From: an uncultured Gammaproteobacteria bacterium
GTDB taxonomy: Bacteria; Patescibacteriota; Microgenomatia; UBA8517
Assembly: GCA_964431555.1 (NCBI GenBank)
Contig: CAYSJW010000031.1
Span: forward strand, 336-64,335
Direction of reading: 5' to 3'
Length of the DNA: 64,000 bases
The translations under genes and the position numbers were made by a program. The notes under the pieces were generated by a model. That model had not been told where the DNA came from. It made no database searches and saw only the letters and a list, made by a program, of their open reading frames with translations. Positions 47,934 through 64,000 of this stretch are shown in pieces (positions within the stretch are counted from its first letter, which is position 1; each line of letters opens with the position of its first letter).

Positions 47934-49910
47934 GTGAAAAGATTTCCCTTTTTCAATACAGTTACTGTGCTTTTTCCTCTCTTAATCTTTTTATCAATTT
48001 TCTCAATAACCCTAAGCCAGATTTTTCTTTTAGAACCAAAAATGGTCAAGAAAACTACTTTACCTAATCAACTAGCAGGTCGGGTAATTTCTTCAACTTG
48101 CCATGAACCAATGAGTGGGTGTGGCAGTAATTACTATTGGGATTCACAGACCTGCTCTTGTAAATGTGTTACGAGTAATACCTGTCCAACTAATTATTAT
48201 TGGAATACAACCTCATGTTCGTGTGTTCCTCAAACAACCACCAATAAAACAACTTGTGACCCGCAATACTGCGGGATCAATCGTTACTGGGATGAATCTT
48301 CATGCTCGTGTAAATGCGCATCCTTCACTGCCTGCCCGACGGATCAGTACTGGGATGTTGCATCCTGCAGTTGCTTGCCTTCTACATCAGCAAACTTTAC
48401 CCCCACTCCTACAACCAAAACTTCCCCAACTACCACAAGCAGTATCACTGATTGTACCCAGCAATATTGTGGTTTAAACCGCTACTGGGATCACGCATCT
48501 TGTTCATGCAAATGTGCATCATATACTGCCTGTCTAACAAATTACTTCTGGGATACCTCATCCTGTAGTTGTCTTCCTTTAACCGAAACGAATACCAAAA
48601 CTACTTCAGAACCATCAAGTTGCACAACACCAACTTCGGATTGTCCTGCAAATTATTATTGGGACAGCAAAACTTGCTCCTGCAAATATTTGATAACAAA
48701 TCTTGACAGACTTGCCCATGAAACTCCCGAAGTAACCACATGTGTCAAATCAAAGTTGGCAGATTACGAGTATCAAAGATTTAGATATTTTATACCCACC
48801 ACCCAGCAAGATTTTGATGAAATAGAAAATCTCCACGATAGAGTTTTAGATTGTTGGAGATTAGAAATATCAGCTTCTGAAACAGCTCAAATTAAAACTA
48901 CATTAATTGAAAAAGAAAAATGTCTCATCAATTCCATCGGAGAAAATGCATACCGTCAAATTTATGAAGGAAAAAGGTCCCCCACCCAAAATGAGCATTT
49001 GTGGTTTGAAAAATGCTTCGGAAATATTCCAGCAAGTACGGTTGTTTTCCTTGATAAGGATGAGAATCTCTCAAAGGAAACTATTTCCTGCCTCAAAAAA
49101 ACACTTGGGCCAGATTTATATCAAAAGGTGTATTCTCAAAAGGCTCAAGTACCAGCCAACCTACAAAAGGGGGTTGAAATTTGTTTCGGGGCAAAATCAC
49201 AACCGTTTGAAATTGGTTCCGTATACAAAATTCCTGAATCCGTAAGAAACTGCTTAACACAAAACTTAGGGGAAGTAAAAATTGACATGTTAATTGAGGG
49301 TGTAGCCCAGTTAACTGAAGACAAAAAGGAAAAAGCCGTATCATGTTTTGAAATGATTAACCAATCCCAGAAAAAATTTCTTCCGCCCCCACCCGAACAA
49401 ATTCCCTTTATCAAAGAAAGTGATTCTATAAAAGTTACAAACGTAAAACAGGAGAAAAAAACCATAAAGAAAAAGACCTATGGAGGCAAAATAACGCTGG
49501 AGGGCAGAGCTACACCAAATAGCATCGTCAATCTCTATTTCTTTTCAGAGCCAATCGTCGTCACCACAAAAACCGATGAAAACGGCGACTGGATTTTTGA
49601 AATGCAAAAGCCGATGGATGAGGGAAAACATATTGTTTATGCTATGACAAAAACCGAAGAGGGTAATTTGATTAGATCATCAATTTTAAGTTTTGAAGTC
49701 ATCGCGGCAGAAAAGGTATCAACTCCCCAAATTTTTCTTGAAGAAGACAAAGTTACAAGTGTAACAAAAGATTTCATATACTATTCTTTAGCCGCAATAC
49801 TGATAATATCTTTAATTATTTCTGGAAGTATTTTTTACATTCAAACAAGCAAAAAAATAAATAAAATGGGAGAAAATGAATTAAACAGGAATAGTAAAAC
49901 TAAACCTTGA
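47934..49910 (+). CDS. Secreted, C-terminally membrane-anchored protein. It has about seven tandem Cys-rich repeats (C...YYWD...CSC), a C-terminal Ig-like domain and a GTG start.
   Basis: A signal peptide is present. The repeats alternate CxxQYCGxNRYWDxxSCSCKCASxTA with CxTNYYWxTxSCSC[LV]P between aa 60 and 265. A Big-like domain follows (GRATPNSIVNLYFFSEPIVVTTKTDENGDW) and then a C-terminal TM helix. Confidence 0.6.
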   Translation: MKRFPFFNTVTVLFPLLIFLSIFSITLSQIFLLEPKMVKKTTLPNQLAGRVISSTCHEPMSGCGSNYYWDSQTCSCKCVTSNTCPTNYYWNTTSCSCVPQTTTNKTTCDPQYCGINRYWDESSCSCKCASFTACPTDQYWDVASCSCLPSTSANFTPTPTTKTSPTTTSSITDCTQQYCGLNRYWDHASCSCKCASYTACLTNYFWDTSSCSCLPLTETNTKTTSEPSSCTTPTSDCPANYYWDSKTCSCKYLITNLDRLAHETPEVTTCVKSKLADYEYQRFRYFIPTTQQDFDEIENLHDRVLDCWRLEISASETAQIKTTLIEKEKCLINSIGENAYRQIYEGKRSPTQNEHLWFEKCFGNIPASTVVFLDKDENLSKETISCLKKTLGPDLYQKVYSQKAQVPANLQKGVEICFGAKSQPFEIGSVYKIPESVRNCLTQNLGEVKIDMLIEGVAQLTEDKKEKAVSCFEMINQSQKKFLPPPPEQIPFIKESDSIKVTNVKQEKKTIKKKTYGGKITLEGRATPNSIVNLYFFSEPIVVTTKTDENGDWIFEMQKPMDEGKHIVYAMTKTEEGNLIRSSILSFEVIAAEKVSTPQIFLEEDKVTSVTKDFIYYSLAAILIISLIISGSIFYIQTSKKINKMGENELNRNSKTKP

Positions 49911-51218
49911 CCCGGATCCATAAATCGACTCAACAGATATTCTTCCTCCCAAAGCTTCAACTATTTTTTTGGTAATCCATAAACCCAAACCAGTTCCTCT
50001 TACATTTTCGGTTTTCTTATCCTGAACCCGGTGGAATTTCGAAAAGAGTTTTACTATCTCATCTGGGGGTATTCCAATACCTGTATCCTTAACAGCTATT
50101 TCAATAAACTTATCCCTTTTTCTTGCACTAATTTCTATATTTCCCTCAAGAGTATATTTTATCGAATTACCTAAAAGATTAGTTATAATTTGACGCAATC
50201 TATTTCTATCAGTTTTTACAACAGGAAGATTTTCTTCTTGATAATTAATAATCAAACCTTTTGCATCAGCTGATGATTTCATGGTAGCAATAACATCCTG
50301 AATAACTTTATTAACATCAACTTCGGTTAGTTCATAGGTTAACCTACCCTGTTCAATTCTTGAAACATCCAAAAGATCTTCTATTAAATTTCTTAAATCA
50401 TCGGTTAAACTTTGCAAAAGAGAAATATCAGAAACAATTTTTTGAGCCTCTTGGGGAGAAATTTTTTTCTGCAAAAGATCTAAGTACCCTACCAATGCTG
50501 TAATTGGAGTTCTTAATTCATGGGCTGCCATTGACAAAAATTCATCCTTAAGCTTATCCACTTCTTCAAGTTGTCTTACTTTCTGAGCCTTTTGGTAAAA
50601 AATAAAGTGATTTATCAATAATGCCAAGGCAAATAAAATTAACAAAAAAAGTACAAGATAGGAATCTTTTGATGTTCTTTGTAGTATTTGATCTACCTTA
50701 TCAACCTTTAATTTTAAAAACATTATATAGTTTTTGCCGCTAACTTCACCTAAAGGAACTGAAACATTCCACAAATTCATACCAGCTTTGGGATCATAGC
50801 TTAAACCAGCAAAGGGCTCATTAAAACTCAAGGAGAGCTGGTTTAAACCTAAGTTACTAAAATCTTCAGTTTCATAATTTAAAGACGATGAAATAACAAG
50901 ATTAATTTTTTTGTTTTCCTGATAAAGTATGGAAATATCAAAAATATCACTATTCGAATTTACCGTTTTTTCAAGAGTATTTCTTAAAACATCCAAATTA
51001 CCGATGTTATCCAATACGTTAGGTTTTAATGTTTCAGCAATGCCCAAGGCATGATGGCGAATTAAAAAATTTATATCTCTACCAAATGAGCGCAAATTCC
51101 AGACTGTATTAAAAACCAAAAGAGAAGGTATAAAAAAAATTATGACAATTGGGTAAAAAACAAAAGAAAACTTCTTATAAGATTTCAACTTTTCAGAAAA
51201 ATTTGAAAAGATAAGCAT
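49881..51218 (-). CDS. Sensor histidine kinase.
   Basis: Two TM helices with a periplasmic sensor domain. H-box HELRTPITAL and HATPase GTGLGLWITKKIV. Confidence 0.85.
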   Translation of the reverse strand: MLIFSNFSEKLKSYKKFSFVFYPIVIIFFIPSLLVFNTVWNLRSFGRDINFLIRHHALGIAETLKPNVLDNIGNLDVLRNTLEKTVNSNSDIFDISILYQENKKINLVISSSLNYETEDFSNLGLNQLSLSFNEPFAGLSYDPKAGMNLWNVSVPLGEVSGKNYIMFLKLKVDKVDQILQRTSKDSYLVLFLLILFALALLINHFIFYQKAQKVRQLEEVDKLKDEFLSMAAHELRTPITALVGYLDLLQKKISPQEAQKIVSDISLLQSLTDDLRNLIEDLLDVSRIEQGRLTYELTEVDVNKVIQDVIATMKSSADAKGLIINYQEENLPVVKTDRNRLRQIITNLLGNSIKYTLEGNIEISARKRDKFIEIAVKDTGIGIPPDEIVKLFSKFHRVQDKKTENVRGTGLGLWITKKIVEALGGRISVESIYGSGSRFSFTIPV

Positions 51219-51264
51219 TTTCTATCAACGCTTTAGATAAACCCAAAATATTAATAAAACTAAT

Positions 51265-51684
51265 TTAAGAAATATATTTTTTTACAGTCTCGCTTAATTT
51301 ATCTAAAGAAATCTCGTTTTTAATAAGATACTCCAACACACCTAAATTTAAAACTTTACTTTTTTCCTCATCATCAGCAAGATTGGACCAGGCTATAATC
51401 TTCAAATTTCGGCCTTTTATATTTTTTCTAATTTTTTCTATCAATTCAGTACCTGAAAGCCGGGGAAGCATAATATCGGTTATTAAAAGATCTATTTTGT
51501 TATTTTGAAAAATTTCATAACCTTCTTCTCCATTACTGGATGATAAAACATTGTATCCATCCATCCTTAATCTTTGTTCATACATATTCCTCAACACCAC
51601 ATCATCTTCAACCAACAATATATTTTTGGGAGAAACTACATTTACTTTCTTTTCTTCTTCATTACTTTTATCCATAAAATCCAA
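51265..51684 (-). CDS. Stand-alone response-regulator receiver (CheY-like).
   Basis: LLVEDDVV ... DLLITDIMLP ... KIIAWSN. There is no output domain. Confidence 0.8.
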   Translation of the reverse strand: MDFMDKSNEEEKKVNVVSPKNILLVEDDVVLRNMYEQRLRMDGYNVLSSSNGEEGYEIFQNNKIDLLITDIMLPRLSGTELIEKIRKNIKGRNLKIIAWSNLADDEEKSKVLNLGVLEYLIKNEISLDKLSETVKKYIS

Positions 51685-51801: not shown

Positions 51802-52836
51802 TTATTTGACCATTTTCCTTACATCTTCAATTCTTATCCAACCGTTAGTTTCATCATCAAGAATCACTCTATACCATCCAGATGCTTTATCTATTACCTT
51901 TAGACCAGAATTTTTCCTAATTTCCCCAATAACCTCCGCCTGATCATTCGGCTTTGAATATAAATTAAGACCTTCCCCATTGTAGATAAAAATCAAATCA
52001 TACAAATTGCTCTGACTATGAAACCTCTGAAAATCGTCATAACCTTTAAACTTCTCAATCCAATTTGAGACAGGGACTAAAGATGAATAATTTTCAAAAA
52101 ATGTATATGAAAAACAAAAACCAATTCCCCAAGCACTTATTCCAATCATTAATAAAACTAAAATTCTCATTTCAAAACCTAACTTTATTTTTAACACCAA
52201 AGGTCTTTTAACCCTAATGAAAATTGCTGTCAAGAAAACCAATAAAAACAAAACTGTAAAAGGTAAAAGTGAGAATTTGAAATTATAAGAGGAAGTCCCC
52301 AAAACCTTGGATCTGCTTGGTAAATTTTCAATCAAGGTTTTTGAAGAAGCCAAAAGTTTATCTTCAGAATATACTTCAAAAGTCCCAACATAATATCCAT
52401 TTTTCAAGATGACCGGAAACTCAAGATCAATTTTTAAAGTTTCGCCACTTTTTACTCTTTCTTTCTTTTCTTTACTTGATATAACTTTATCAGAACCATC
52501 CAACTTAGATGCTATAAGTAAAACTCTGCTAATGTCTAAATCTTCACCACTTTTATTAAATAAAGTTATTGTCGCAAAAATATTCTCGTCAGAAACCAAT
52601 TCACCTAGACTGATATTTTTTATTTCAAGATAATCGCTTTCAAAATAATTCTCTTTTTCATTACCTTCACTAACCTGAATAGTATCTATGAAAAAATTGT
52701 CTAACCTTCCTTGAGCAAAACATACAAAATTCCTCCCTTTTCTCCATATAAAAGTTATTAATAAGATCCAAAAGGAAAAAATTAAAAAACTTATAAACAA
52801 AGGTAAAAAGATCTTTAAAAAAGTATTTTTCCGCAT
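51802..52836 (-). CDS. Membrane protein with a C-terminal bacterial SH3 (SH3b) domain.
   Basis: TM helices at the N-terminus and in the middle. The C-terminus reads YSKPNDQAEVIGEIRKNSGLKVIDKASGWYRVILDDETNGWIRIEDV. Confidence 0.45.
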   Translation of the reverse strand: MRKNTFLKIFLPLFISFLIFSFWILLITFIWRKGRNFVCFAQGRLDNFFIDTIQVSEGNEKENYFESDYLEIKNISLGELVSDENIFATITLFNKSGEDLDISRVLLIASKLDGSDKVISSKEKKERVKSGETLKIDLEFPVILKNGYYVGTFEVYSEDKLLASSKTLIENLPSRSKVLGTSSYNFKFSLLPFTVLFLLVFLTAIFIRVKRPLVLKIKLGFEMRILVLLMIGISAWGIGFCFSYTFFENYSSLVPVSNWIEKFKGYDDFQRFHSQSNLYDLIFIYNGEGLNLYSKPNDQAEVIGEIRKNSGLKVIDKASGWYRVILDDETNGWIRIEDVRKMVK

Positions 52837-52870
52837 AATCTTAATTTAATTAGATAAAAAAATACCCTAA

Positions 52871-54499
52871 TTACCACCCTGAAACATCACCTTTTACAGC
52901 TATCAAATAATTCGACCCAGAATAAATCCCAGCTACTGTATTTTCCGGAACTTTAATTCCCCAGTAAATGCTTTTTTCCCGAAACGTTTTAGTAGGTTTT
53001 TTCAAGTCAAGATCAAAATACTTCATCCCCTTCCCCAAAGGGAAGGCATCCCAGAAACAAATTTTAGATAGCGCATAACGTTGATTTTCCACTGATATTT
53101 TATATTCACCGGCATTAACAAGGTCAGTCCCATATAAAATTGCATCCAAACCAACATTGCTAAAAGATCTAATCTTAGTTTCTTTTGATAAGGGGTCTAT
53201 AACCTGGCCTATATTCAATTCCCCATATTCTATTCCAGAATCCAAATCAAAAGAAATAAGACTATTCATCTCAACTCCGATTGACACCTCCCTTTCCGAA
53301 ACAAAACCATTATCATCCTCAACTCGCAATGTTGCTTTCCAATCATCGGTAGAAAAAAAGGTTCCTTTATCAGTTGGGTCGGCATAATACCAGACCTCAA
53401 TATCACACTGGTAATTTAAAGTGGCATCCTTAGGATGTTCACAAAGCTCACCCTCAACTAAACTACAAGAAATACTAGGATAACAATAATTATTGTTAGC
53501 TTGGTAAATTGATTTGCAGCCCTGATAACCGACAGATGATCGATAAAGACTGGCTGTAACTGACTTTATTTCATCTTGACTACAGGAGTTTCTATCGCTG
53601 ACAGTTGCAGTAACTTTCACCAAAGTTTTTGTATTTGGAAAAAGATTGATATCCCTCCCCTGATTTAAAACCAAACTCATAGTTTCCGGATAGATATTAT
53701 TCACCCCGAAAGAACTCTCAACCCCCTGCAAACTAGATTGAGATTCCATACCATGTTCATCCACCAAAAAAACGTAAGCTTTATGGAGATTATCTTTCTC
53801 AATATCAGGAATCCTGTAACTGCAAGTCGGATTATTTGAAGACAATTCACTTTCGCAATATACTCCATCACTACATCTACCATTAGAAAAAGAAGGAGAA
53901 CTACAAACAAAAATTTTTGTCCTGTCTCTTCCCCCTATCACATCGGGGTCAAATGACTTAACACTCCAAACAATTAAACCACTAGGATAATCACTACCAT
54001 TATTGGTCACCGAAATAAATTCGGGAGGGTGATTTACATAAAACGGAGATCCTTGAGATCCTGAGCCTTGATAGGAATCTGAACAATAACCTGTTCCAAA
54101 ACTACAAAGAAAAGCAAACCAATCGTTCTCTTCAGAATCATCAATCCTTGCCATATACTCACATTTGGCATTATTTCCATTTTCCGTTAATTCGCTCATA
54201 CACCACATACCTTGAGGGCACGAAGGTGGATGTCCAGCATTTGAAATAATCTCGTCGGTTTTACATACAATAAAATAGTAACTGGGCGACTCCGGATCGT
54301 AAGCCTGGGCGTTAAAAATTATCTTTTCACCCGCATTTGTGGGCAGACCAACAGAGCTTTCAGGATCCTCCAGCGGACCATAAGTAAAGTGCGGAATATC
54401 CGCAACATAAACAACAACATTTACAGTTTGGGCATTAACCCTTGCAATAACAAAAGAAAAAAGAAAAAAGCCAAAAAAAATAGGCAGGGTTTTAAACAT
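52871..54499 (-). CDS. Secreted Cys-containing protein, paralog A1 of 56878-58590.
   Basis: A signal peptide. It shares two repeated Cys domains with the paralog (YYFIVCKT... and IFVCSSPSFSNGRCSD...CSYRIPD...YVFLVDEHG). The shared C-terminal motif is IYWGIKVPENTVAGIYSGSNYLIAV. Confidence 0.5.
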   Translation of the reverse strand: MFKTLPIFFGFFLFSFVIARVNAQTVNVVVYVADIPHFTYGPLEDPESSVGLPTNAGEKIIFNAQAYDPESPSYYFIVCKTDEIISNAGHPPSCPQGMWCMSELTENGNNAKCEYMARIDDSEENDWFAFLCSFGTGYCSDSYQGSGSQGSPFYVNHPPEFISVTNNGSDYPSGLIVWSVKSFDPDVIGGRDRTKIFVCSSPSFSNGRCSDGVYCESELSSNNPTCSYRIPDIEKDNLHKAYVFLVDEHGMESQSSLQGVESSFGVNNIYPETMSLVLNQGRDINLFPNTKTLVKVTATVSDRNSCSQDEIKSVTASLYRSSVGYQGCKSIYQANNNYCYPSISCSLVEGELCEHPKDATLNYQCDIEVWYYADPTDKGTFFSTDDWKATLRVEDDNGFVSEREVSIGVEMNSLISFDLDSGIEYGELNIGQVIDPLSKETKIRSFSNVGLDAILYGTDLVNAGEYKISVENQRYALSKICFWDAFPLGKGMKYFDLDLKKPTKTFREKSIYWGIKVPENTVAGIYSGSNYLIAVKGDVSGW

Positions 54500-55391
54500 T
54501 ATTCATCTTTTTCTTTTTTAAGCTAATAAAAAATGCTTTCAAAACTAAAAGGCTAATAATAAGCACTAAAAAAGACAATCCATAAAGTATTATTAAGTAG
54601 TTTTTGCCTCCAGTATCATACGTCTTTTCTGAAATACTCTCTTCCTTTTCTTTAACATTAAAAACCAATTTTTCTTCCCTCAAGGGTTTATCCTGAAATA
54701 CTACCGTAACAAAAGCGTAATATTCTCCCTCAATCAAATTATTCTTAAATTCGGCAGTTATATCCTTGGTCAAAGAAGGCTCAATACTTTCAAAATCCAA
54801 ATCCTCACCTTCAAAAAGCAAATTATTTGCAATGTCATAAACTTTAATTTCAATCTTTTGAGGTTTAGACTTCTTATTCCCTTGGTTCTCTATTGTGAGA
54901 ATCAAACGTATCGGATCCCCCTTCATTACGTTTGGCATTTCCATTTTTCTTACCAAAAGCCTATTTACTTCAATTTTCGTTGTTATAAGATTAACGGCAA
55001 TCCCAACTCCCTTAACCAGGGATACACCTGGTGTACCTTCACCTTCCAATATCTTTACAACAATAAATCCTTCATAGTTTCTTAAGGGAGCATCTTCCGG
55101 TATTGACACTTTTACCTTCATCTTCTTAGTTTTTTCTCCCCGCAAAATTGGAAAAGAAACACCCGGTTCAACCTTTATCCATTGATTTGCACCCTCAACA
55201 TCCGCCTCAATAACTATCCTTGCCTCTTTTTCACTTTCCGTTCTTGAAATAAGAAATTCTTTTTCTACTGTCTCACCGGGAATGATGTTTTCAAAAGTAA
55301 AATCAGACGGTGAAATTCCAAAAGAAGCATAAACGCAAGGCGGAAACAAGATAAAAAAGAAAAGACACAAAATTAGAGCATTTTTTTTCAT
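54492..55391 (-). CDS. Surface protein B1: signal peptide, two beta-rich domains (the second CARDB-like) and a C-terminal TM anchor.
   Basis: FGISPSDFTFENIIPGE... then KGDPIRLILTIENQGNKKSKPQKIEIKVYD (CARDB-like), then TM LIILYGLSFLVLIISLLVL. Confidence 0.5.
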   Translation of the reverse strand: MKKNALILCLFFFILFPPCVYASFGISPSDFTFENIIPGETVEKEFLISRTESEKEARIVIEADVEGANQWIKVEPGVSFPILRGEKTKKMKVKVSIPEDAPLRNYEGFIVVKILEGEGTPGVSLVKGVGIAVNLITTKIEVNRLLVRKMEMPNVMKGDPIRLILTIENQGNKKSKPQKIEIKVYDIANNLLFEGEDLDFESIEPSLTKDITAEFKNNLIEGEYYAFVTVVFQDKPLREEKLVFNVKEKEESISEKTYDTGGKNYLIILYGLSFLVLIISLLVLKAFFISLKKKKMNNV

Positions 55392-55439
55392 AACTTCACT
55401 ATTATAGTACTGGAAACTTCAACTTAACCAGAAGAGATA

Positions 55440-56825
55440 TCACTTTCTACTCTTAACACTTGTCTTATGAAGCCAACCAAAACTTCCATCATAAAGCATG
55501 ATATTATACCAATCTCCCTCTTTTTTAATCACCTCAAAAGTCTCTCCATCCTCTGCCTCATAAATAATTTTTGAAGTGAAAGTTGGTTTTTCATAAACTG
55601 GATATAGACCAGGCGTTCCAGGCTTACTCACCAAAAAGGGAGCATTTTTCTCCTCTAATTGAACTGAAACTCCTTTAACTTCCTTTTGGGGAGTGGGAGT
55701 AATTTGGACTTGAGTAGTAGGTGAGGGTGACAAAGTTGGACTAAGAATCTTTTCTTTCTCTACTACCTCACTTTCTACCACCTTATTTTGTCTAATCAGC
55801 TTCGGTGAAAAACCCAAAACCAAACCTACAAAAGTTATCAAAAAACTAGCCACCAGCAACAAAAGGGTTAACAACTTATTTTTATGAACCAAATCCGATA
55901 TCTTTTTTTCAAAATCAGATTCTCCTTTCTCCTTCCTTCGAAAATAGACAAAAAGCAAAATAGTCAAAATCAATAAACCAACGAAAGCCAGTATCAACCC
56001 TATCCAATTCATCAAACCAAAAGAGACAGGCTGAACCTGAAATATCTCTTCCTTTACCTTAGCTGGTTTTGCATTTACAGTCAAAACCATTTTCTGTCTA
56101 GCAATCTCTTCACCTTTAAAAACAACTGATGCGTCTATTCTATATTGACCTACATCCAAATTTGAATTAAATTCTGCCTTAATTTCCTTTGTTGTAAAAG
56201 GCTCAACTACCTCAAAAGATGAGTCCGATAAACTCTCCAAAGGTTTTTCAAAAAGATCCATAATTTCCAAATCAACTCTATCAGGCTTTGCCGGGGTATT
56301 ACCCAAATTCTCTATTTTTATAAAAAGACTGACAGGATCACCACTTTCTATACTGGGGGCATTTATTGAAAGAACTTTAAGAGAAGACAAGTCCTTATTT
56401 GTCGTTGTCAATTCCACCTGAAGAACTGCACCTTTAATCATCGTTACACCTTCGCTTGCTTTTTTATCAGACAAACCCTTAGCTACTATACTTCCCTTGT
56501 AAGTTTTAAGATCAATGTCTTTAGGAACATCAATTATTACCTTAAACTTAGTGGTATTCTCTCCCTTGGGAAAGGGAAATTCCATTCCAGGTTCAAACTT
56601 AAACCAACTTCCCATTTCACCCAAATCCGGCTCAAGCACAACATTCAGATTCTCGCTAACTTCCTTAGCCGGTCTGGTAACAAAAATTTCAGTTTCATAA
56701 TGACTTCCCGCTTTTAAATTTTTAACATTAATTTCAGCGGGTGTTACCCCAAAACCCGAAGCAATCCTTGGAGAAAAGAAAAAAACCAAAAGCAAAATAA
56801 AAAATAAAGTTAATTTCCTAAACAT
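55440..56825 (-). CDS. Surface protein B2, paralog of B1, with a C-terminal TM helix and an intracellular/extracellular SH3b-like tail.
   Basis: FGVTPAEINVKNLKAGS..., SGDPVSLFIKIENLGNTPAKPDRVDLEIMD, a TM helix, then GETFEVIKKEGDWYNIMLYDGSFGWLHKTSV. Confidence 0.5.
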   Translation of the reverse strand: MFRKLTLFFILLLVFFFSPRIASGFGVTPAEINVKNLKAGSHYETEIFVTRPAKEVSENLNVVLEPDLGEMGSWFKFEPGMEFPFPKGENTTKFKVIIDVPKDIDLKTYKGSIVAKGLSDKKASEGVTMIKGAVLQVELTTTNKDLSSLKVLSINAPSIESGDPVSLFIKIENLGNTPAKPDRVDLEIMDLFEKPLESLSDSSFEVVEPFTTKEIKAEFNSNLDVGQYRIDASVVFKGEEIARQKMVLTVNAKPAKVKEEIFQVQPVSFGLMNWIGLILAFVGLLILTILLFVYFRRKEKGESDFEKKISDLVHKNKLLTLLLLVASFLITFVGLVLGFSPKLIRQNKVVESEVVEKEKILSPTLSPSPTTQVQITPTPQKEVKGVSVQLEEKNAPFLVSKPGTPGLYPVYEKPTFTSKIIYEAEDGETFEVIKKEGDWYNIMLYDGSFGWLHKTSVKSRK

Positions 56826-56877
56826 TTTTAAATAATACTAAAATAATAAACTACAAAACCAGCAACTTTTATTATAT

Positions 56878-58590
56878 TTACCAATAACTTGGCCCACTAT
56901 AAATAGCCGCTAGAGTAGTTGTTCCTGTATAAGTTGCTGGGAACTGATCGTCCGGAATATTGATACCCCAATAAACATAATCCACTTCAGGAGAACTTGA
57001 TATGGTTGTTTTTGGTGTTCTAATCTCTACAGTCTGACCCGTCCCACTAAGAACAATTGAAGCTGAATCCCATTCAGTATTGTAAGTTTCATCGGCTCTC
57101 TGGTTATTGACAGCAATTGTGTGACCTTGACCATCGCTCATTGGAGCAGAACTTGAAACTTGCGTATTCAAGCCGGTATTTCCCGTATTGGTAACCTCGT
57201 TGGAATCTACCAAATAATCATCGTGCATTCCCGCTGACATACTTCCATAAGAAAGATTACCTGAATCCAGAGCCTGAAGCATGTTTAATTCCACCCCTGT
57301 TGCCGTATCATCCACCTCTTCCAAATCATCATCGGCAATTTCAAAATAAGAAAGCCAAGTATCATCGGACCAAGGAGTATTTTCAACTGTCGGATCTGTA
57401 TGATACTGCATAGCTGCAGTACAAGTATAGGTTACATCAACATCCGATCCCCCAGTGCAAGTGGAATTGGAATTACAGACAACTTTATAATCGCCGGAAT
57501 CACCAGTATAACAGTTATTAACATTTCCGCTACAAGATGATCCTCCAGAAACCGATGACCTATACATCACATAACTTGAAGGGTCATCCAAATCATTACA
57601 CCCATTATTGTCTTGAATTGAAACCACGAAACTTATATTTGTCGTTGAAGGATACTCTCCCCCTGTTAAAACAATCGCACTTCCCCCGTTTGTACTTATA
57701 CTTAATATAGTCGGTGCGACATTAGCTACATAATAACCCGATGAAGTGCTAACCGAAGGATCAAAACCGTGCTCATCGACAATGAAAGCATACGCACTAT
57801 AAGGGGATGAGTCATCATCGGTTCCTGCCGGAATTTGATAAGAACAGGTAGGGTTGGATGACTTTCCAATATCGTAACACAATGTTGTCGCCGCACACGA
57901 TCCATTAAATGAGTTTGTCGAACAAACATAAAGGCTTATCGTATCACCTGAATCGGTATCTGGATCACTTGCAACAGTAGTCCAGGTAACGTAATCTCCC
58001 GGATCATTTGGAGAACTTTCTCCTGCGTCATTTTGCACACTTGTTACATTTGGAGCATGATTAACCACTAAAGGTGACGCCTCATTTTGGCCAGTATTCC
58101 CCTGCGAAGTCGCCGAGCAAGTCTGATCTGTTGTATTTGCGTCACAAACTTTGGCATACCAAACCTGATTCTCATTATCTCCCTGCTGGGCTTGATAATT
58201 ACAACTTGCAACCTCACCATCATTTGTGGCTGATGAAACACAAATGGTTTGGCCTGTATCACAAGTTGGAGCACCAGAATTATTCTCATTAAAAACATTG
58301 GTTTTACAAACTATTAAATAGTATTGCTCTCCGTTTGGTTCATCAGCTGTTGCCCTGAAGGTAGTTGAAGAACCAACATTAACAGGGCTGGCAGTATATC
58401 TAGCAGGACTCTCACAAGGATAATTACCACAAACTGCATCAGTATCAAAATCCGGAGGATCGTTACCCACAGTAACGGAAGTCTCAATATTATCTGCTTT
58501 TGTTTGTTTAGAAAAACCCGGGATAAAACCAACTACTAATAAAACTGCCAAAATAAAAATTAAATAAATCCTTATTTTTTTAAATTTCAT
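56878..58590 (-). CDS. Secreted Cys-containing protein, paralog A2, rich in Ser/Thr/Asp.
   Basis: YYLIVCKTN...CNYQAQQGD...WYAKVCD...SPLVVNHAPNV and ISLYVCSTNSFNGSC...CSYQIPAG...YAFIVDEHG. The C-terminus reads VDYVYWGINIPDDQFPATYTGTTTLAAIYSGPSYW. Confidence 0.5.
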   Translation of the reverse strand: MKFKKIRIYLIFILAVLLVVGFIPGFSKQTKADNIETSVTVGNDPPDFDTDAVCGNYPCESPARYTASPVNVGSSTTFRATADEPNGEQYYLIVCKTNVFNENNSGAPTCDTGQTICVSSATNDGEVASCNYQAQQGDNENQVWYAKVCDANTTDQTCSATSQGNTGQNEASPLVVNHAPNVTSVQNDAGESSPNDPGDYVTWTTVASDPDTDSGDTISLYVCSTNSFNGSCAATTLCYDIGKSSNPTCSYQIPAGTDDDSSPYSAYAFIVDEHGFDPSVSTSSGYYVANVAPTILSISTNGGSAIVLTGGEYPSTTNISFVVSIQDNNGCNDLDDPSSYVMYRSSVSGGSSCSGNVNNCYTGDSGDYKVVCNSNSTCTGGSDVDVTYTCTAAMQYHTDPTVENTPWSDDTWLSYFEIADDDLEEVDDTATGVELNMLQALDSGNLSYGSMSAGMHDDYLVDSNEVTNTGNTGLNTQVSSSAPMSDGQGHTIAVNNQRADETYNTEWDSASIVLSGTGQTVEIRTPKTTISSSPEVDYVYWGINIPDDQFPATYTGTTTLAAIYSGPSYW

Positions 58591-58778
58591 AAATCTTCGT
58601 ATAAAAGTATTAAATAATTATTAAATAGTTCATAACCAAATTTCAATAGCAAATTAACCAACATCGTTTCTACTAGATTTTAGAATTTTTAAATACTATA
58701 AATATACTGGTATATTCGGTAAATATTAAGCTAATAGAATAAATTTATTGCACCTATAAAAATTAACCCCAAAGTTTG

Positions 58779-61700
58779 CTAAGGAGAAACTATACTGACA
58801 ATGGTATTACTTCCATAATAATTTCCCCAGGGAGTAGTTTGAGGAATACCTAAAATCCAATAAACATTCTTCGAGGAATTTGAAGGTATAACTTGCGATT
58901 TGGGAATATCTATATCCAAGGGTACAAGATCTTTTGAAAGCAAATTACCCTCACCATAAATAAAACTCGAAGAATCATATTCCTGGTTATCAACATTTAT
59001 CTTATCCCCAAGACAATCCGGATAATCTGTACACATATCATCCCCTGAAATACGCAAATCCAAAGTTCTATTTCCATGATTTTCAACCGGAGTTTGTTTT
59101 AGACCTGACGTCTTAGTGGGAAGAATTTTACCATAAGCAATAGATGATGAAGTACTTATTGTAAGAAGACTATTTACATCAACTACATCGGAAGGGCTGA
59201 TATTTTCCCCTGATTCGCTTTTAACATCTGTTGCCTTAATCCAAGCCAACCAATATTCAGATGAGTAATTCCCCGAATCTGTTGCATCAGAAAAAAAAGC
59301 TAAAGATACCTCACAGGTTGCCGTACAGGAATTTCCCGAACAACCTGAAAGAGTACAAGATGAATCATAATAACAGTTATTTAAATCCTCAACACACTCT
59401 TTCCCAACTCCCGACCTATATACCTTGCCTTCAACAACATCTATATCCGAAAATCCATTCTCGTCAGAAACAGTTGCTGTAAAATTCACTGCTTTGCTAC
59501 TATTTGGTGTCAAATCAATATCTAAACCTGAATTCAAAACTACATTTACCACTTCTGGTGCCGCATTAATGGTCACAACTCCTTCTGAATAATCACTTAC
59601 CTGGGGATTAATACCGTCACTGGTTATACCATATATATAATAAGTTCCAGGGGAAACTCCTGTTGTATCCCAATCACAAGTTTGATTTGAACCTTCAGGC
59701 TGGTCCTGGCAGCTTGAAATCGCAGTTCCGTCAAGACCGCTACCATCTGTGTCATAATAAAAATCGGCATAAACAGTATTATCACCATCACTAAGGTCAT
59801 ACTGGATTGTAAAAACAGATCCTTCAGAAATTACATCGTTAACTCCATCTGGTTCATCAATATTAAGAGAAGGCGGCTGATTTACCAAAGGAGTATATTG
59901 GATAACAATAATTCCCTGTTTCCCTGAAGAACCGGAACCTGCAGAATAACCCTTTCCCGAACCTCCCCCTCCTGCGCCGCCCGCACCATATTGACCAGAT
60001 GTGCCACCCCCGCCTCCGTTGTTATTTCGGCTTCCCCCGCCTCCTCCACCGCCACCACCTCCAGAACCGTGAGTAGAATCCCACTCGCTCCCATTACCTC
60101 CCGCCCCACCCGAAGAACTTGCCGGACCACCGCTTCCTCCGATTCCACCATAAGAACCGTCTCCTCTTCCTCCACTCCCTCCAGCACCTCCCGTATTTCC
60201 TGAAGCGGCAGAACCATTATTACCCGCATTTCCAGATGCATAAAGTCCACCAGCTCCACCGCCACCGCCACCCCCTCCACCGGCATTTGTAGAAGCCGCA
60301 CCTCCACTACCACCATTACCTCCTGAATAACCTGAACCAACCGAAGCTACACCCCCGGACCCCCCATTTGTTCCTGAACCTCCACCACCCCCTGTGGCAC
60401 AAACAGACGAGCTAGCACAACTTGAACCGTTGAAGTAAGTTGACCCCCCTGCGCTTCCTACCGAACCACCACTTCCTACTGCCAACGAAACGGAACTATT
60501 GGGAGTTAAATCCAAATTGGTAATTTTTGAATAGCCTCCACCACCCCCTCCTCCTCCGCCAAGACCTCCTGATGTTGATGAAGCTGTTCCATTTGCTCCT
60601 CCACCACCCCCGCCAACTACTTCAATAGAATTGTCATTATCATTCCAATCATTGGGTACTGTCCAACTCGTTCCCGAAGTTATATAAACAGTCGCATCCG
60701 AAGCTAATTGCCACTGACGAGTATCCCTGAAGGTCTGTTGAGCATCCATCGAAATCATCTCTAAAGGTCCAAGCAAAAAAACAAAGGGGGATAGTTTTGG
60801 AGCCTGATATTCATAAGCAAGTACTTTTTTCTCTTTTGCAGTAACATCCAAAATCCAAGAAATAAACTTTTCATTTTTTTCTTCAGTAATTGTGTAGTTA
60901 CCTTCTTTTATTTGAAAATCTTGCGGAACTTTTTCAATGAGGGTTCCTGAAAAACCAGACTTAGATTCCACTACAATCTTCATCGTATAAGAAGATTTAT
61001 AAGGATTTATACGCGTTGCTCCCACTCTTTCCAGCGAAAAAACAGGATCTTCCTCTACAGTAAACGCACCATTTATCGAAAAACCATTGGCAAGGTTGGT
61101 TAGAAAAAAATGATAGTTGCCAATCTCCTTCAGTTCATAATAAACAAAATAATCAGGTTTATCGGTGACATTATTATTTAGACAATAATCACTTATGGAG
61201 ATAGACCCATCCTCAACATAAAAACTTTTTACCTCCCCATTTGGCTTAACAATCAAAAGTTCCAAGTTGCTATCACAAACCGTGTGTCCATCATCCCCTA
61301 AAGAAGCCATCTGAATATAGGCGGTTTCACCTTTTGCAAAAACTGTTTTATTCAAATTAAGAGCCAGCACTCCATACAAAAAAGTCTGCTCAACAAAATT
61401 ACCCGTTTCATTATCTCTGACAGTAACAACATGTTTACCTGGTTTTATATTGCTAATCGGCACCTGCAATGTCAGATTTTTTAACTCAATATCCTTCTCA
61501 AGTTCCACATTCTTGTCAATGTCTTCAACAATCAGTTTTAAATTCGAGTCTTTTTGTGGTTTGTCAATTTTTTCATTCGACAATCCTAGTATTTTTTGCA
61601 ATACCCCCGATTGAGTTGAACCAACTGTCTCCTCAAAAACAACTTCCTCAATCTTGACTTCAGGCACTTCATCTGCTCTAAAATGAACTTTCGGCATTGA

Positions 61701-63935
61701 AACTTTAATTGTTTTATCTTTGGTATTTAAAATTCTTTCCTCCAACTTAAGATTTCCATAGCGCTCACTAGCCAAAAATTTACCCTTGGGCATCACCAAA
61801 TCTGGTCTAATTTCCCAAACCCTATCAACACCTTTTCCATCAATTACAACCGGGCCCAGATAATAGTTAGTCCAATCGCTTCCCAAATCACTAAATGTGT
61901 ATCTTAGGGTATAAGTTTTGCCTTTTATAAAATCTACATCCCAAATAATCTCTTGAATGCTTTCATTTTCCTTAACCACAAAGTCCTCTTTTAGAGAAAT
62001 TAAATCTTGGTTTTCTGACGACGTAACAAAATTACTATAGGGTTTAATGTAAAAGTTCTTTGGCAAGATATCTTTAACCTTTCCTTTATAATTACGGTTT
62101 GCTTTTATTTTTATCACAACAGGATAATCCTCACCTGGTCCCACCCTAATTGGAGCTCCTCTTGAAACTTCAAAATCTTCATCTACTCCTAAATCGTTAA
62201 CTACAAAGTCAGAAGATAACTCAAACATTTCATCAGCTTTTTCAAAAATAAGACTAACTTTATAATCACCTTTTTCAGTTACAATATACTTTGCTTCATA
62301 GTCTGCCTTGTTTGTTTTTTCTGATCTCTTACATTCATCATTTACTTTAATAGAACCATCAAATGTCGCTAAAATTGTCTTTTTGACCAAGTCCTTATTC
62401 TCTACAATCAAAAGTAAATTTGCGTCACAATATGGCTTACCTTGACTATCCATAACACTCATCGCAAATAATACCTCTTCACCAACTTTATAAGACGATT
62501 TATTGACATTCAAAGCGGCAATCCCCCAGCTAAATTTCTTAGTTACTAATCCTTCATTCTTTGATTCAAAATTCAGAGTGTATTCACCAGGTCTTAAACC
62601 ACTCGAGTCATCTACCCTTATTTCATATTCCCCTATGTCATTTTTTATGACTTTAAAACCGCTTACCTTTGTACCGCTAGAATCAAAAATATTCACTTTG
62701 GGTTCTTCTGGCTCAATCTCATAACTCACCCCCAAGACCTTTGACAGGCTACTTTGTGTTTTCTGAACCAATCCTATTTTCTTTTGAACAGTAAAAAGGG
62801 GCTTTTCTGTAACCAAATAATTCGTTTTACCCCTCACAATTAAATCTTTACTTTCTGATTTATAAACCACTTCTGAAAATTGCTCTTTCCCCTTTTTTAC
62901 ACTTTCTTCAGAAAAGGTAAAACTCTGTTTTAAAAAATAACCCTCCTCTTCTCTAATAAAAGATGGGGCAAAAATTAAAAATAAAATAAGTAAAGAATAA
63001 TAAAATAAGTAACTTGGACTATCTCTGAAGTAACCAATAAGTCTTAACGAAAAATTTTCCAATTCTGTTTTTACAAAAAGTGCTTTTGCAAAATCAACAA
63101 AAAAGTCAATGTTTTGAAGGATTGAAAACTTTAATGATATCAGGCGTTTTTTGAAAGAAGCTATAAAAGCAAAATAGTAATCAAGAATAAGTAAAGATAT
63201 CTTCTTTGAAGAAAATATAAAACTCGCTTTCAAAGCTTTTGGAATTTTACGAGTGAGTGCATAAAGAAGTTTAAGTCTATGCTCAATAAAGGAAAACGAA
63301 AGTGAAACTGTAATAACCGGTACTTTTTCTTGTCTTCTCCTCAAAAGCTTTTTAGCAAACAATATCCTTTTTTCTCTATTACTTAACTGGTACCGATTTA
63401 AAATGTTCCAGATAGTCCAAACGGAAACATTTAAACTTTCTGAAAGTTGACTGATTGAAAAGAAAGGATTATTTGCAACAAGCAATAAGAGTTTTTCTTC
63501 GATCCTCGGGTAGACAGCCAACGGATGGTCTTTACCTCTGACATATTCTTTCTTAAAAATTTCTACTTTGTCACTCTGTTTATTCCTGTACCGTTGGATC
63601 CAAGTATAAAGTGTTTTTCTGGCAATTCCATATCTTTTAGCCACATCTGTAATCCTTTCCCCGTTATTTACTACATGGAGTACCGCTTCTTTTCTCTTAT
63701 AAGCATATAAATTTTTACGCTTGTAGTTGTAAGAATACAAAATACGTTTTTCTTGAGTATTTAAATTATGTTTTTCAAGAATTTTCCAAGTAGTCCAAAC
63801 CGACAAAGGTACATATCTAGTTAATGAATTTATAGATAATTTTGGATGTTTAACAACTATTCTAAGAAGTTTTTCTTCTAATAAAGGATATTTAGCTCTC
63901 GGGTGTTTGTATCCTCTAACATACCTAGGAGTCAA
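58779..63935 (-). CDS. Giant 1718-aa protein. It has three transposase-like HTH domains at the N-terminus, two hydrophobic TM segments, a long extracellular region with a 250-aa poly-Gly/Ser tract, and a C-terminal paralog-A domain.
   Basis: aa 1-200 contain duplicated HPRAKYPLLEEKLLRIV...SVWTTWKILEKH and HPLAVYPRIEEKLLLLV...SVWTIWNILNRY (winged HTH) flanking RITDVAKRYGIARKTLYTWIQRYRN (IS3-OrfA-like HTH). TM helices lie at about 235-330. The Gly tract (...VVGGGGGGANGT...GGGGGGGGGGSRNNNGGGGG...) spans about aa 1090-1345. The C-terminal domain reads CQDQPEGSNQTCDWD...YYIYGITSDGINPQVSDYSEGVVTINAAPEVVNVV and YWILGIPQTTPWGNYYGSNTIV, shared with 52871 and 56878. Confidence 0.55.
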   Translation of the reverse strand: MTPRYVRGYKHPRAKYPLLEEKLLRIVVKHPKLSINSLTRYVPLSVWTTWKILEKHNLNTQEKRILYSYNYKRKNLYAYKRKEAVLHVVNNGERITDVAKRYGIARKTLYTWIQRYRNKQSDKVEIFKKEYVRGKDHPLAVYPRIEEKLLLLVANNPFFSISQLSESLNVSVWTIWNILNRYQLSNREKRILFAKKLLRRRQEKVPVITVSLSFSFIEHRLKLLYALTRKIPKALKASFIFSSKKISLLILDYYFAFIASFKKRLISLKFSILQNIDFFVDFAKALFVKTELENFSLRLIGYFRDSPSYLFYYSLLILFLIFAPSFIREEEGYFLKQSFTFSEESVKKGKEQFSEVVYKSESKDLIVRGKTNYLVTEKPLFTVQKKIGLVQKTQSSLSKVLGVSYEIEPEEPKVNIFDSSGTKVSGFKVIKNDIGEYEIRVDDSSGLRPGEYTLNFESKNEGLVTKKFSWGIAALNVNKSSYKVGEEVLFAMSVMDSQGKPYCDANLLLIVENKDLVKKTILATFDGSIKVNDECKRSEKTNKADYEAKYIVTEKGDYKVSLIFEKADEMFELSSDFVVNDLGVDEDFEVSRGAPIRVGPGEDYPVVIKIKANRNYKGKVKDILPKNFYIKPYSNFVTSSENQDLISLKEDFVVKENESIQEIIWDVDFIKGKTYTLRYTFSDLGSDWTNYYLGPVVIDGKGVDRVWEIRPDLVMPKGKFLASERYGNLKLEERILNTKDKTIKVSMPKVHFRADEVPEVKIEEVVFEETVGSTQSGVLQKILGLSNEKIDKPQKDSNLKLIVEDIDKNVELEKDIELKNLTLQVPISNIKPGKHVVTVRDNETGNFVEQTFLYGVLALNLNKTVFAKGETAYIQMASLGDDGHTVCDSNLELLIVKPNGEVKSFYVEDGSISISDYCLNNNVTDKPDYFVYYELKEIGNYHFFLTNLANGFSINGAFTVEEDPVFSLERVGATRINPYKSSYTMKIVVESKSGFSGTLIEKVPQDFQIKEGNYTITEEKNEKFISWILDVTAKEKKVLAYEYQAPKLSPFVFLLGPLEMISMDAQQTFRDTRQWQLASDATVYITSGTSWTVPNDWNDNDNSIEVVGGGGGGANGTASSTSGGLGGGGGGGGGYSKITNLDLTPNSSVSLAVGSGGSVGSAGGSTYFNGSSCASSSVCATGGGGGSGTNGGSGGVASVGSGYSGGNGGSGGAASTNAGGGGGGGGGAGGLYASGNAGNNGSAASGNTGGAGGSGGRGDGSYGGIGGSGGPASSSGGAGGNGSEWDSTHGSGGGGGGGGGGSRNNNGGGGGTSGQYGAGGAGGGGSGKGYSAGSGSSGKQGIIVIQYTPLVNQPPSLNIDEPDGVNDVISEGSVFTIQYDLSDGDNTVYADFYYDTDGSGLDGTAISSCQDQPEGSNQTCDWDTTGVSPGTYYIYGITSDGINPQVSDYSEGVVTINAAPEVVNVVLNSGLDIDLTPNSSKAVNFTATVSDENGFSDIDVVEGKVYRSGVGKECVEDLNNCYYDSSCTLSGCSGNSCTATCEVSLAFFSDATDSGNYSSEYWLAWIKATDVKSESGENISPSDVVDVNSLLTISTSSSIAYGKILPTKTSGLKQTPVENHGNRTLDLRISGDDMCTDYPDCLGDKINVDNQEYDSSSFIYGEGNLLSKDLVPLDIDIPKSQVIPSNSSKNVYWILGIPQTTPWGNYYGSNTIVSIVSP

Positions 63936-64000
63936 TAACTTTAAACTTTTATCTGAAGATTTCTGAACTATTTTAATTAAGCTGTATAAGGTTTTTCTGG

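Follow-up and report, generated by a model that had tools for sequence, protein, structure and literature searches.

A putative domesticated transposase DNA-binding domain on a giant bacterial surface fibre: a candidate membrane-tethered regulator

Transmembrane regulators such as ToxR, TcpP, CadC and TfoS/ChiS of Vibrio and enterobacteria control genes while they remain resident in the membrane (PMC11856585). In a stretch of 64,000 nucleotides (nt) of contig CAYSJW010000031.1 from an uncultured bacterium, hereafter the window, we analyzed a minus-strand gene that encodes a giant protein of 1772 amino acids (aa) and shares the layout of this class: an N-terminal cytoplasmic DNA-binding domain, one transmembrane (TM) helix and an extracytoplasmic C-terminal domain, a topology that is here predicted. 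The giant protein differs from the ToxR class in that its fold is a duplicated, bipartite helix-turn-helix (HTH) of transposase type rather than an OmpR/PhoB winged helix, and in that its ectodomain is not a compact sensor but a fibre of ~1390 aa with about ten beta-sandwiches and a glycine-rich module. Transposases of the IS481/IS630-Tc1-mariner type likewise have an N-terminal bipartite (paired-like) HTH DNA-binding domain, whereas the unit described here is tandemly duplicated, fused to membrane proteins and encoded in a conserved chromosomal operon, with no rve or DDE_3 domain. RodZ, too, is bitopic, with an HTH at its cytoplasmic N-terminus and its C-terminal part on the other side of a single TM helix, and it shows that an HTH so placed need not bind DNA; however, the HTH of RodZ is single and of Xre type, its C-terminal domain is small, and the giant protein has no significant Xre-type or RodZ-family match in Pfam.

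The outer part of the giant protein has described counterparts of its own. The tail fibre of cyanophage Pam3 combines a TNF-like and a glycine-rich domain, in which extended GGGGxGG motifs stack into a lattice; this module, which is similar to phage S16 gp38 and to the ligand-binding domain of ALK, serves to recognise the host receptor (PMC9608196). The glycine-rich module of the giant protein has the same GGGGxGG-type motif alternation as Pam3 gp24, S16 gp38 and ALK/LTK. It differs in belonging to a cellular, membrane-anchored protein rather than to a trimeric phage fibre or a kinase, and in being longer (~290 aa) with more glycine motifs, the copy in the window falling below Pfam thresholds. 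The repeated units of the ectodomain are built from macroglobulin-like sandwiches as in alpha-2-macroglobulin and C3, with a stalk-like repetition as in fibrillar adhesins. In a literature search of incomplete coverage we found no account of HTH tails of transposase type, either on giant Patescibacteria surface proteins or on GT2 synthases. This architecture and its recurrence are solid, and unusual. As to its function, we rank first the reading that the giant protein is a membrane-tethered DNA-binding regulator, a surface fibre that may be autoregulatory; we hold this reading tentatively, at slightly less than an even chance.

The sequence-only reading of the window had placed the start of the protein at a TTG at position 63935. 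That start is an edge effect, as the frame stays open through base 64000, where the edge codons encode '...RKTLYSLIK...', the tail end of another HTH. On the minus strand the frame then runs unbroken to the stop at 58779-58781, as had been read. Look-up of the downstream 570-aa neighbour protein recovered a near-identical contig from ENA (L001), which has three mismatches to the window over 17.1 kb and in which the giant gene begins with an ATG 97 nt outside the window edge, giving a product of 1772 aa. Between aa 1 and aa 546 the protein has no Met. A JGI contig (L005) equals the window over 4250 nt, the entire glycine region included, and the DNA of this glycine tract is unchanged in both L001 and L005 relative to the NCBI-derived window. 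Moreover, a protein-cluster look-up found the giant protein in NCBI and ENA records alike. The locus is a single genuine gene whose 5' end is cut by the window.

The wider family was revealed by a full HMMER scan, and its best 150 representatives were used for the ectodomain-family analysis. Word-indexed searches were nearly blind to it: the N-terminal 433 aa returned one fragment, and an alignment of the HTH unit returned nothing. The same HTH unit or units, a TM helix and the ectodomain are found in one open reading frame (ORF) in 16 of these 150 top representatives. The unit is doubled in the closest relatives, P0003 (2396 aa, 40% identity), P0004 and P0001, and is single in P0013 (3137 aa, 32% identity), which comes from an NCBI genome. 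Two metagenome loci, L006 and L007, repeat the order of four HTHs, TM helix and ectodomain in one frame. Across L004 and L006-L014, where enough sequence follows the HTH, the frame continues into TM segments and mostly then into the ectodomain or a GT2 domain. A profile scan of genome contigs returned one locus, of GT2 type, and the taxonomic spread is poorly sampled. No stop or gene boundary between the HTH and TM regions was found in any related locus examined. Together, these results support that the fusion of HTH, TM and ectodomain is conserved and genuine. The sequence-only reading had proposed such a fusion, and it stands in P0003, P0013, P0004, P0001, L006 and L007, each of which is single-frame.

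An alternative is that the fusion is an artefact, in which an assembly join, a frameshift or a recent insertion sequence (IS) insertion brought an HTH ORF and a surface-protein gene together. Points in its favour are the length of the gene, its GC-rich glycine region and a transposase-like HTH ORF ~2.6 kb upstream of it, at the end of contig L001. However, the NCBI-derived window and the JGI contig are identical where they overlap, the ENA contig adds only the three differences given above, many metagenome loci, as well as relatives that are 32-47% identical, keep the one-ORF architecture, and the glycine region contains no DNA tandem repeat. The artefact explanation is effectively refuted. 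The upstream ORF (L001:2-310, minus strand) is transposase-like, with matches to HTH_28/HTH_29, and only its 5' part lies on the contig. It is not detectably nearer to the tail of the giant protein than other HTH_28 proteins are, and the contig break of L001 probably falls within an IS copy.

The cytoplasmic tail (aa 1-256) is made of two tandem units of ~125 aa (aa 2-128 versus 128-254), which are 38.6% identical (expectation value, E, 4e-24) and bear out the N-terminal duplication seen before. Each unit consists of an HTH_23/HTH_28-type HTH, a conserved linker, Y-x-G-K-x-H-P, and an HTH_32/ISL3/Tc3-type HTH. The three HTHs counted previously were right as to HTH content; the number is four, in two bipartite units, and the first HTH was cut by the window edge. 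Whether scanned whole or as aa 1-260, the protein matched only HTH_23/28/29/32, ISL3, Tnp_1 and IS630-type models in Pfam, with 62.8 bits for HTH_28, 57 bits for HTH_23 and 52.8 bits for HTH_Tnp_ISL3 in the tail, and no Trans_reg_C. In NCBIfam, the unit aligns with positions 2-113 of the IS481 transposase model (E 3e-9) and 2-116 of the IS630 model (E 6e-9), at scores far under the full-length cut-offs (36.8 versus 224 bits). By these Pfam and NCBIfam matches, the HTH once called IS3-OrfA-like is instead of the IS481/IS630 (paired-like) type.

A profile built from 21 units matches a 62-residue fragment of the Sleeping Beauty transposase (5unk_A, E 4e-4), which we take to be the second (RED) half of a paired-like DNA-binding domain. 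Queries with the unit also retrieve true rve transposases, such as L017 with HTH_28, HTH_32 and rve, and an rve-like (IS481-type) domain is found in 28 of 42 weaker loci that match the first HTH only. Anywhere in the 1739/1772 aa of the giant protein, no Pfam match to an rve or DDE_3 catalytic domain was found. Upstream of the giant gene there are no convincing terminal inverted repeats, the repeat search having given only AT-rich chance matches. Since unit queries recover true transposases, the tail is best read as a domesticated DNA-binding domain of an IS481/IS630-type transposase that lacks the catalytic domain. The unit is conserved across proteins that are only ~30% identical, which argues for ancient domestication and not for recent insertion. 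Thus, the alternative raised by the sequence-only reading, an IS-derived cassette, holds for the transposase origin but not for a recent arrival.

A second group of proteins has the same HTH tail, after which come two TM helices, then a GT2 glycosyltransferase domain and then further TM helices (P0005, P0007, P0009, P0034-P0037, P0054, P0055 and P0140, plus L004 and L008-L013). Many of these additionally bear the ectodomain unit, and their source names are glycosyltransferase (Candidatus Woesebacteria) or cellulose/PNAG-synthase-like. One locus of Candidatus Woesebacteria (L184:1-20530, CP065002.1) has three consecutive giant paralogues of 2578, 1323 and 3509 aa with four HTHs and a GT2 domain. 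Within this locus, the upstream regions of the second and third paralogues each hold a small divergent gene of MerR/HTH_17 type, and a gene of ~190 aa comes after each of the first and second. Other family members carry an HTH_17/MerR-type module, frequently doubled in tandem, or a zinc finger of treble-clef type (zf_Tbcl_2) before the TM helix (alternative cytoplasmic modules in P0010, P0011, P0022, P0027, P0074, P0050, P0085, P0101, P0137, P0138, P0139, P0032 and P0082). Surface proteins of this family have thus repeatedly gained nucleic-acid-binding-type modules at their cytoplasmic end. Moreover, the tail and the promoter module described below are shared with GT2 synthases, which would suit a broader link between envelope and DNA better than an isolated fusion.

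The presence of one tail on two unrelated classes of envelope protein, fibres with a macroglobulin-type stalk and GT2 synthases, also fits a non-transcriptional tether or adaptor. In that case the tail would be a non-specific anchor of the chromosome to envelope machines, or a RodZ-like protein-binding domain, and would serve to position fibre and synthases. The unrelated small modules that precede the TM helix elsewhere in the family fit a generic 'cytoplasmic handle', and RodZ is a precedent for a protein with an HTH, a TM helix and an ectodomain that uses its HTH for protein contact. All 16 of the 16 HTH modules are basic (isoelectric point, pI, 9.6-10.5), and so basic a tail suits non-specific nucleic-acid binding as well. 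However, the bipartite unit retains the features of a sequence-specific transposase DNA-binding domain, its conserved linker included, a strictly conserved DNA element accompanies the genes, and the conserved operon shows no evident partner protein, all of its other products having predicted locations outside the cytoplasm. We consider a tether or adaptor somewhat unlikely.

It could also be supposed that the N-terminal HTH region is a relic without present function, kept for its promoter, start codon and positive-inside signal. A plain N-terminal signal-anchor is all that 82 of the 150 family members have, and the main visible effect of the tail could be merely a basic cytoplasmic segment. 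Against this stand 256 aa that remain recognisable domains at ~30% identity across two architectures, with R33, Y37, H64, L106 and R117 among the invariant positions of the unit, and the recruitment of three different nucleic-acid-binding-type modules to the same position in the family. In addition, the unit seems to have been doubled in tandem on more than one occasion: by pairwise identities, units 1 and 2 of the fibre group are similar to each other to an equal degree, and each is nearer to unit 2 of the GT2 group, which suggests that the unit was duplicated independently in the two groups. A relic is improbable.

We compared the upstream regions of three orthologues and found a nearly invariant 20-mer, TTAGGATGGTTGGTAACACT, upstream of the HTH-membrane genes (positions in Table 1); base-shuffled copies of these regions had far fewer words in common. 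The 20-mer is 100% identical in L001/L005, L002, L003, L006 and the GT2-type L010, the proteins of which are 32-50% identical. At up to 4 mismatches it precedes 17 HTH-membrane genes, and it is also found before a Woesebacteria gene. All 17 of these copies contain the core ATGGT(T/A)GGTAACA, always on the coding strand. No copy with up to 3 mismatches occurs within the 64-kb window, and the element is missing from two relatives without this HTH type (L182 and L183) and from 41 of the 42 loci that match the first HTH only, which include the 28 with an rve domain. An Rfam scan of three loci gave no match at the element. When viral contigs were scanned with the 15-nt core, only chance matches inside phage genes appeared, for example in a portal-like ORF of L163, and none was followed by an HTH unit. 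The element variants TTAGG and TTCCC showed no link to recognition-helix sequences.

In context, the element reads TTGACA-N4-TTAGGATGGTTGG-TAACAM-T (as a pattern, TTGACA-N4-TTAGKATGGTTGGTAACAMT), in which a 17-nt spacer separates a -35 hexamer from a weak -10 hexamer of the TGn extended type. The invariant positions in the spacer suggest that a factor may be bound there, and the tail encoded by the giant gene itself would be the obvious candidate. In the ancestral logic, a transposase binds both its own end and its own promoter. The distance from the element (TAACAM) to the ATG is 6-7 nt in six loci, a spacing that would imply a leaderless mRNA, and 16-34 nt in seven; it is longer in L002 and L006 (65-80 nt in these two), L008 and L015. 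In L015 a small ORF (L015:348-780) lies between the promoter element and the HTH gene.

These distances bear on the possibility that the tail acts in cis only, during translation. It would then be the first part to emerge, from a leaderless or short-leader mRNA, and would bind the promoter of its own gene; while the protein is slowly made and inserted into the membrane, the locus would be held there, about one product would be made per promoter at a time, and the tail of the mature protein would not signal. The short spacing between TAACAM and start codon agrees with this, as do the position of the HTH module, which is always at the extreme N-terminus, and its transposase ancestry; cis-preference and co-translational end binding are known for transposases, and we counted them in its favour. 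However, the argument is purely inferential, the distance reaches 65-80 nt in L002 and L006, and a whole small ORF intervenes in L015. We regard an exclusively cis-acting tail as improbable.

According to the reading that we rank first, that of a membrane-tethered regulator, the giant protein would act as a transmembrane transcriptional regulator in the broad ToxR/TcpP sense. Its basic tail of four HTHs would reach the nucleoid of a very small cell and bind a specific site, of which the likeliest may be the nearly invariant 20-bp element in the promoter of its own gene. Fibre production, and possibly ligand, contact or assembly state, would in this way feed back on transcription. Several points weigh against it. 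The element is itself a core promoter (TTGACA, 17 nt, TGn-TAACAM), and part of its conservation needs no operator. It is degenerate in L004 and in one HTH-GT2 paralogue of Woesebacteria (L184, 3979), and other factors could bind the spacer, such as the products of the small divergent MerR-type genes beside the Woesebacteria paralogues. The HTH_28 recognition-helix signature (ARKTxYxW) is common in transposases with other target sites, and its conservation therefore provides no tie to the element. HTHs of bitopic membrane proteins can be protein-binding adaptors, as when RodZ binds MreB. Finally, membership of the regulator class is predicted from architecture alone, and the organism is known from metagenomes only, its apparent placement in Patescibacteria/Microgenomates being drawn from named relatives.

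A more far-reaching form of this proposal would make the family a new class of direct surface-to-genome transducers in ultra-small Patescibacteria. Outside the cell would stand a fibre of ~40 nm with a receptor-binding module like those of phage tail fibres and ALK, and inside it a duplicated transposase domain would bind its own, often leaderless, promoter element and perhaps others. Host contact, or the assembly of the fibre or of the exopolysaccharide from the GT2 versions, would then reach transcription with no intermediary, and a transposase and its inverted repeat would have been domesticated together as regulator and operator. We hold this fuller version to be rather doubtful.

The predicted topology follows from a single anchor. 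Residues 359-383 (Kyte-Doolittle 2.02, Hessa-type sum 0.2) are the sole segment that qualifies as a TM helix. The TM counterparts in P0003 and P0004 start with a similar tyrosine pair (YLFYYS, YSAYYV, VALYYT), and P0013 and P0135 have one strong hydrophobic segment each. Where two long hydrophobic segments had been described, one is this anchor; we rejected the second (aa ~299-316) as a TM helix, being amphipathic, lysine-flanked and of sub-threshold hydrophobicity. If there were two helices, the acidic, cysteine-rich Ig-type region would be cytoplasmic too. The tail (aa 1-256) has a net charge of +39, a pI of 10.5 and no cysteines, and the juxtamembrane region (aa 257-358) has a net charge of +10 and again no cysteines. 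The ectodomain (aa 384-1772) has a net charge of -63, a pI of 4.6 and all 16 of the 16 cysteines. From the single TM helix and this asymmetry in charge and cysteines, we predict a bitopic type II protein with its N-terminus inside and its C-terminus outside. The ToxR/CadC-like topology suggested earlier fits the predicted asymmetry, but the DNA-binding fold is not of ToxR's OmpR/PhoB type.

The ectodomain (~1390 aa) is a fibre of six macroglobulin-like sandwiches, a TNF-like/glycine-rich module and tandem immunoglobulin (Ig)-like domains. In the stalk, aa ~396-800 are homologous to aa 801-1150. With 44 homologues as input, AlphaFold2 (AF2) modelled aa 790-1140 as three beta-sandwiches at a predicted local distance difference test score (pLDDT) of 88.7 and a predicted template modelling score (pTM) of 0.84, and the best Foldseek matches of this model in the PDB are A2ML1, C3/C3b, cobra venom factor, A2M, TEP1 and bacterial A2M (E ~1e-8). 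Pfam gave a weak MG2 match in the giant protein, and no bait region, thioester domain, A2M core, A2M_BRD or A2M receptor-binding domain; we rejected membership of A2M, as there are no bait or thioester domains. The ectodomain unit of ~300 aa defines a very large family of 2132 HMMER matches; 866 have E values below 1e-30, and the proteins are for the most part 400-6500 aa long. The family motif W-Q-(I/L)-A-S-D-A closes the unit, and differing 'payload' domains come after it across the relatives.

In the giant protein, the payload position is taken by what had been described as a poly-glycine tract of 250 aa, nearly pure in Gly, Ser, Ala and Asn. The glycine-rich stretch is real, but its 261 aa are 41% Gly and 72% Gly, Ser, Ala and Asn, with Gly runs of 5-10, and it is conserved as a domain. 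All four Gly codons are used (GGT 43, GGA 38, GGG 16, GGC 11), and no DNA tandem repeat was found in the region. Aligned with seven homologues, the module has 25 invariant positions. A profile of the eight copies matches the Pam3 tail fibre (7yfw_a/7ypx_A, gp24; E 1.2e-9), and four of the eight aligned copies, homologues, match Pfam PF21722 Gly_rich_2 (best E 7.8e-13), to which the copy in the window gave on its own no match at E up to 1. AF2 modelled the first ~110 residues of the module as strands (pLDDT 55-85) and left the glycine lattice unresolved, with the glycine motifs at ~30. Since AF2 failed on the lattice, the fold assignment rests on sequence, by which the module appears to belong with Gly_rich_2 and the 'poly-Gly' region is a predicted folded domain of receptor-binding type, neither junk nor an assembly problem. 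We rejected a prophage origin of the module, which is embedded in a conserved cellular operon.

The last ~260 residues form two Ig-like sandwiches in the AF2 model (pLDDT >90). This pair gave generic fold matches only (RbmA, integrin alpha legs, pilus adhesins), fold searches with the C-terminal/glycine model were dominated by Ig domains, and a BFVD search added little. The paralogous C-terminal domain noted before was confirmed, with two paralogues in the window (52874..54502, E 3e-20; 56881..58617, E 6e-12), and the domain is also found in Patescibacteria proteins from Levybacteria and Paceibacterota records.

The giant gene heads a conserved gene order. In L002, L003 and L007 it is followed by genes for a secreted paralogue of ~570 aa, an SH3 protein of ~461 aa, a protein of ~299 aa and a paralogue of ~542 aa. 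In the window, the operon downstream of the giant gene extends over 51802-58590 on the minus strand, and two of its proteins end in SH3_3. Its 461-aa protein is paralogous to its 299-aa protein, and both have a signal peptide, a beta-rich domain of ~250 aa and membrane segments. The operon products could be a co-assembling surface structure. The L002 operon contains a gene with a 23S_rRNA_IVP match (15596-15814). Directly downstream of the operon, window positions 49881-51684 on the minus strand encode a lone receiver of 139 aa that lacks an output domain and a histidine kinase of 445 aa with two TM helices, a pair that does not adjoin the orthologous operon in L003. Elsewhere in the window (14400-19643, plus strand) lies a second giant gene, for 1747 aa, with true A2M features: A2M_BRD, A2M, MG2, Big_5 and a weak bMG10.

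Table 1. Coordinates of the giant gene, the regions of its product, the neighbouring operon genes and the promoter element
Feature	Position	Strand	Description
Giant-protein coding sequence, part in window	58779..64000	minus	aa 34-1772 of 1772 and stop 58779-58781; true ATG 97 nt past base 64000
HTH unit 1 (aa 1-128; aa 34-128 inside window)	63714..64000	minus	bipartite, IS481/IS630-type; first HTH cut by window end
HTH unit 2 (aa 129-256)	63330..63713	minus	HTH_23/28-type HTH, Y-x-G-K-x-H-P linker, HTH_32/ISL3/RED-type HTH
Juxtamembrane region (aa 257-358, net +10)	63024..63329	minus	basic, amphipathic; motif RRRE..VPV...SF.Y..H...LL.A.TRKIPK in close relatives
Single TM helix (aa 359-383, core YLFYYSLLILFLIFAPSFI)	62949..63023	minus	predicted by hydrophobicity
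Extracellular stalk (aa 384-1135)	60693..62948	minus	two homologous repeats of ~350 aa, each of three macroglobulin/Ig-like beta-sandwiches; ends W-Q-L-A-S-D-A
TNF-like and glycine-rich (Gly_rich_2) module (aa 1136-1425)	59823..60692	minus	poly-Gly tract of the sequence-only reading
C-terminal region (aa 1426-1772)	58782..59822	minus	weak Big_7-like domain, then two Ig-like sandwiches (aa ~1509-1772) common to secreted neighbours
Operon partner, 570 aa	56878..58590	minus	signal peptide; C-terminal domain paralogous to that of giant protein; syntenic in L002, L003, L007
Operon partner, 461 aa	55440..56825	minus	signal peptide, beta-rich domain, membrane segments, C-terminal SH3_3; syntenic
Operon partner, 299 aa	54492..55391	minus	paralogue of N-terminal part of 461-aa protein; C-terminal TM helix
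Operon partner, 542 aa	52871..54499	minus	secreted; paralogue of 570-aa protein, with C-terminal domain in common
Element TTAGGATGGTTGGTAACACT, ENA contig	L001:2854-2873		~window 64125-64144, ~125-144 nt past window end
Element TTAGGATGGTTGGTAACACT	L002:7-26		
Element TTAGGATGGTTGGTAACACT	L003:9954-9973		
Element TTAGGATGGTTGGTAACACT	L006:7523-7542		
Element TTAGGATGGTTGGTAACACT	L010:5240-5259		
Element TTAGGATGGTTGGTAACACT	L184:9947-9966		

Bacteria of the candidate phyla radiation live attached to other cells and have very few recognisable regulators. In the conserved family described here, a receptor-type surface fibre or a polysaccharide synthase is joined directly to a predicted DNA-binding tail. 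The idea of a link from envelope to DNA is supported by the nearly invariant promoter element and by the two other nucleic-acid-binding-type modules, HTH_17/MerR-type and zinc finger, in sister proteins. If true, it would provide candidate-phyla-radiation bacteria with a simple route of sensing, and would offer a clear example from bacteria in which the DNA-binding domain of a transposase and its DNA site were domesticated together.

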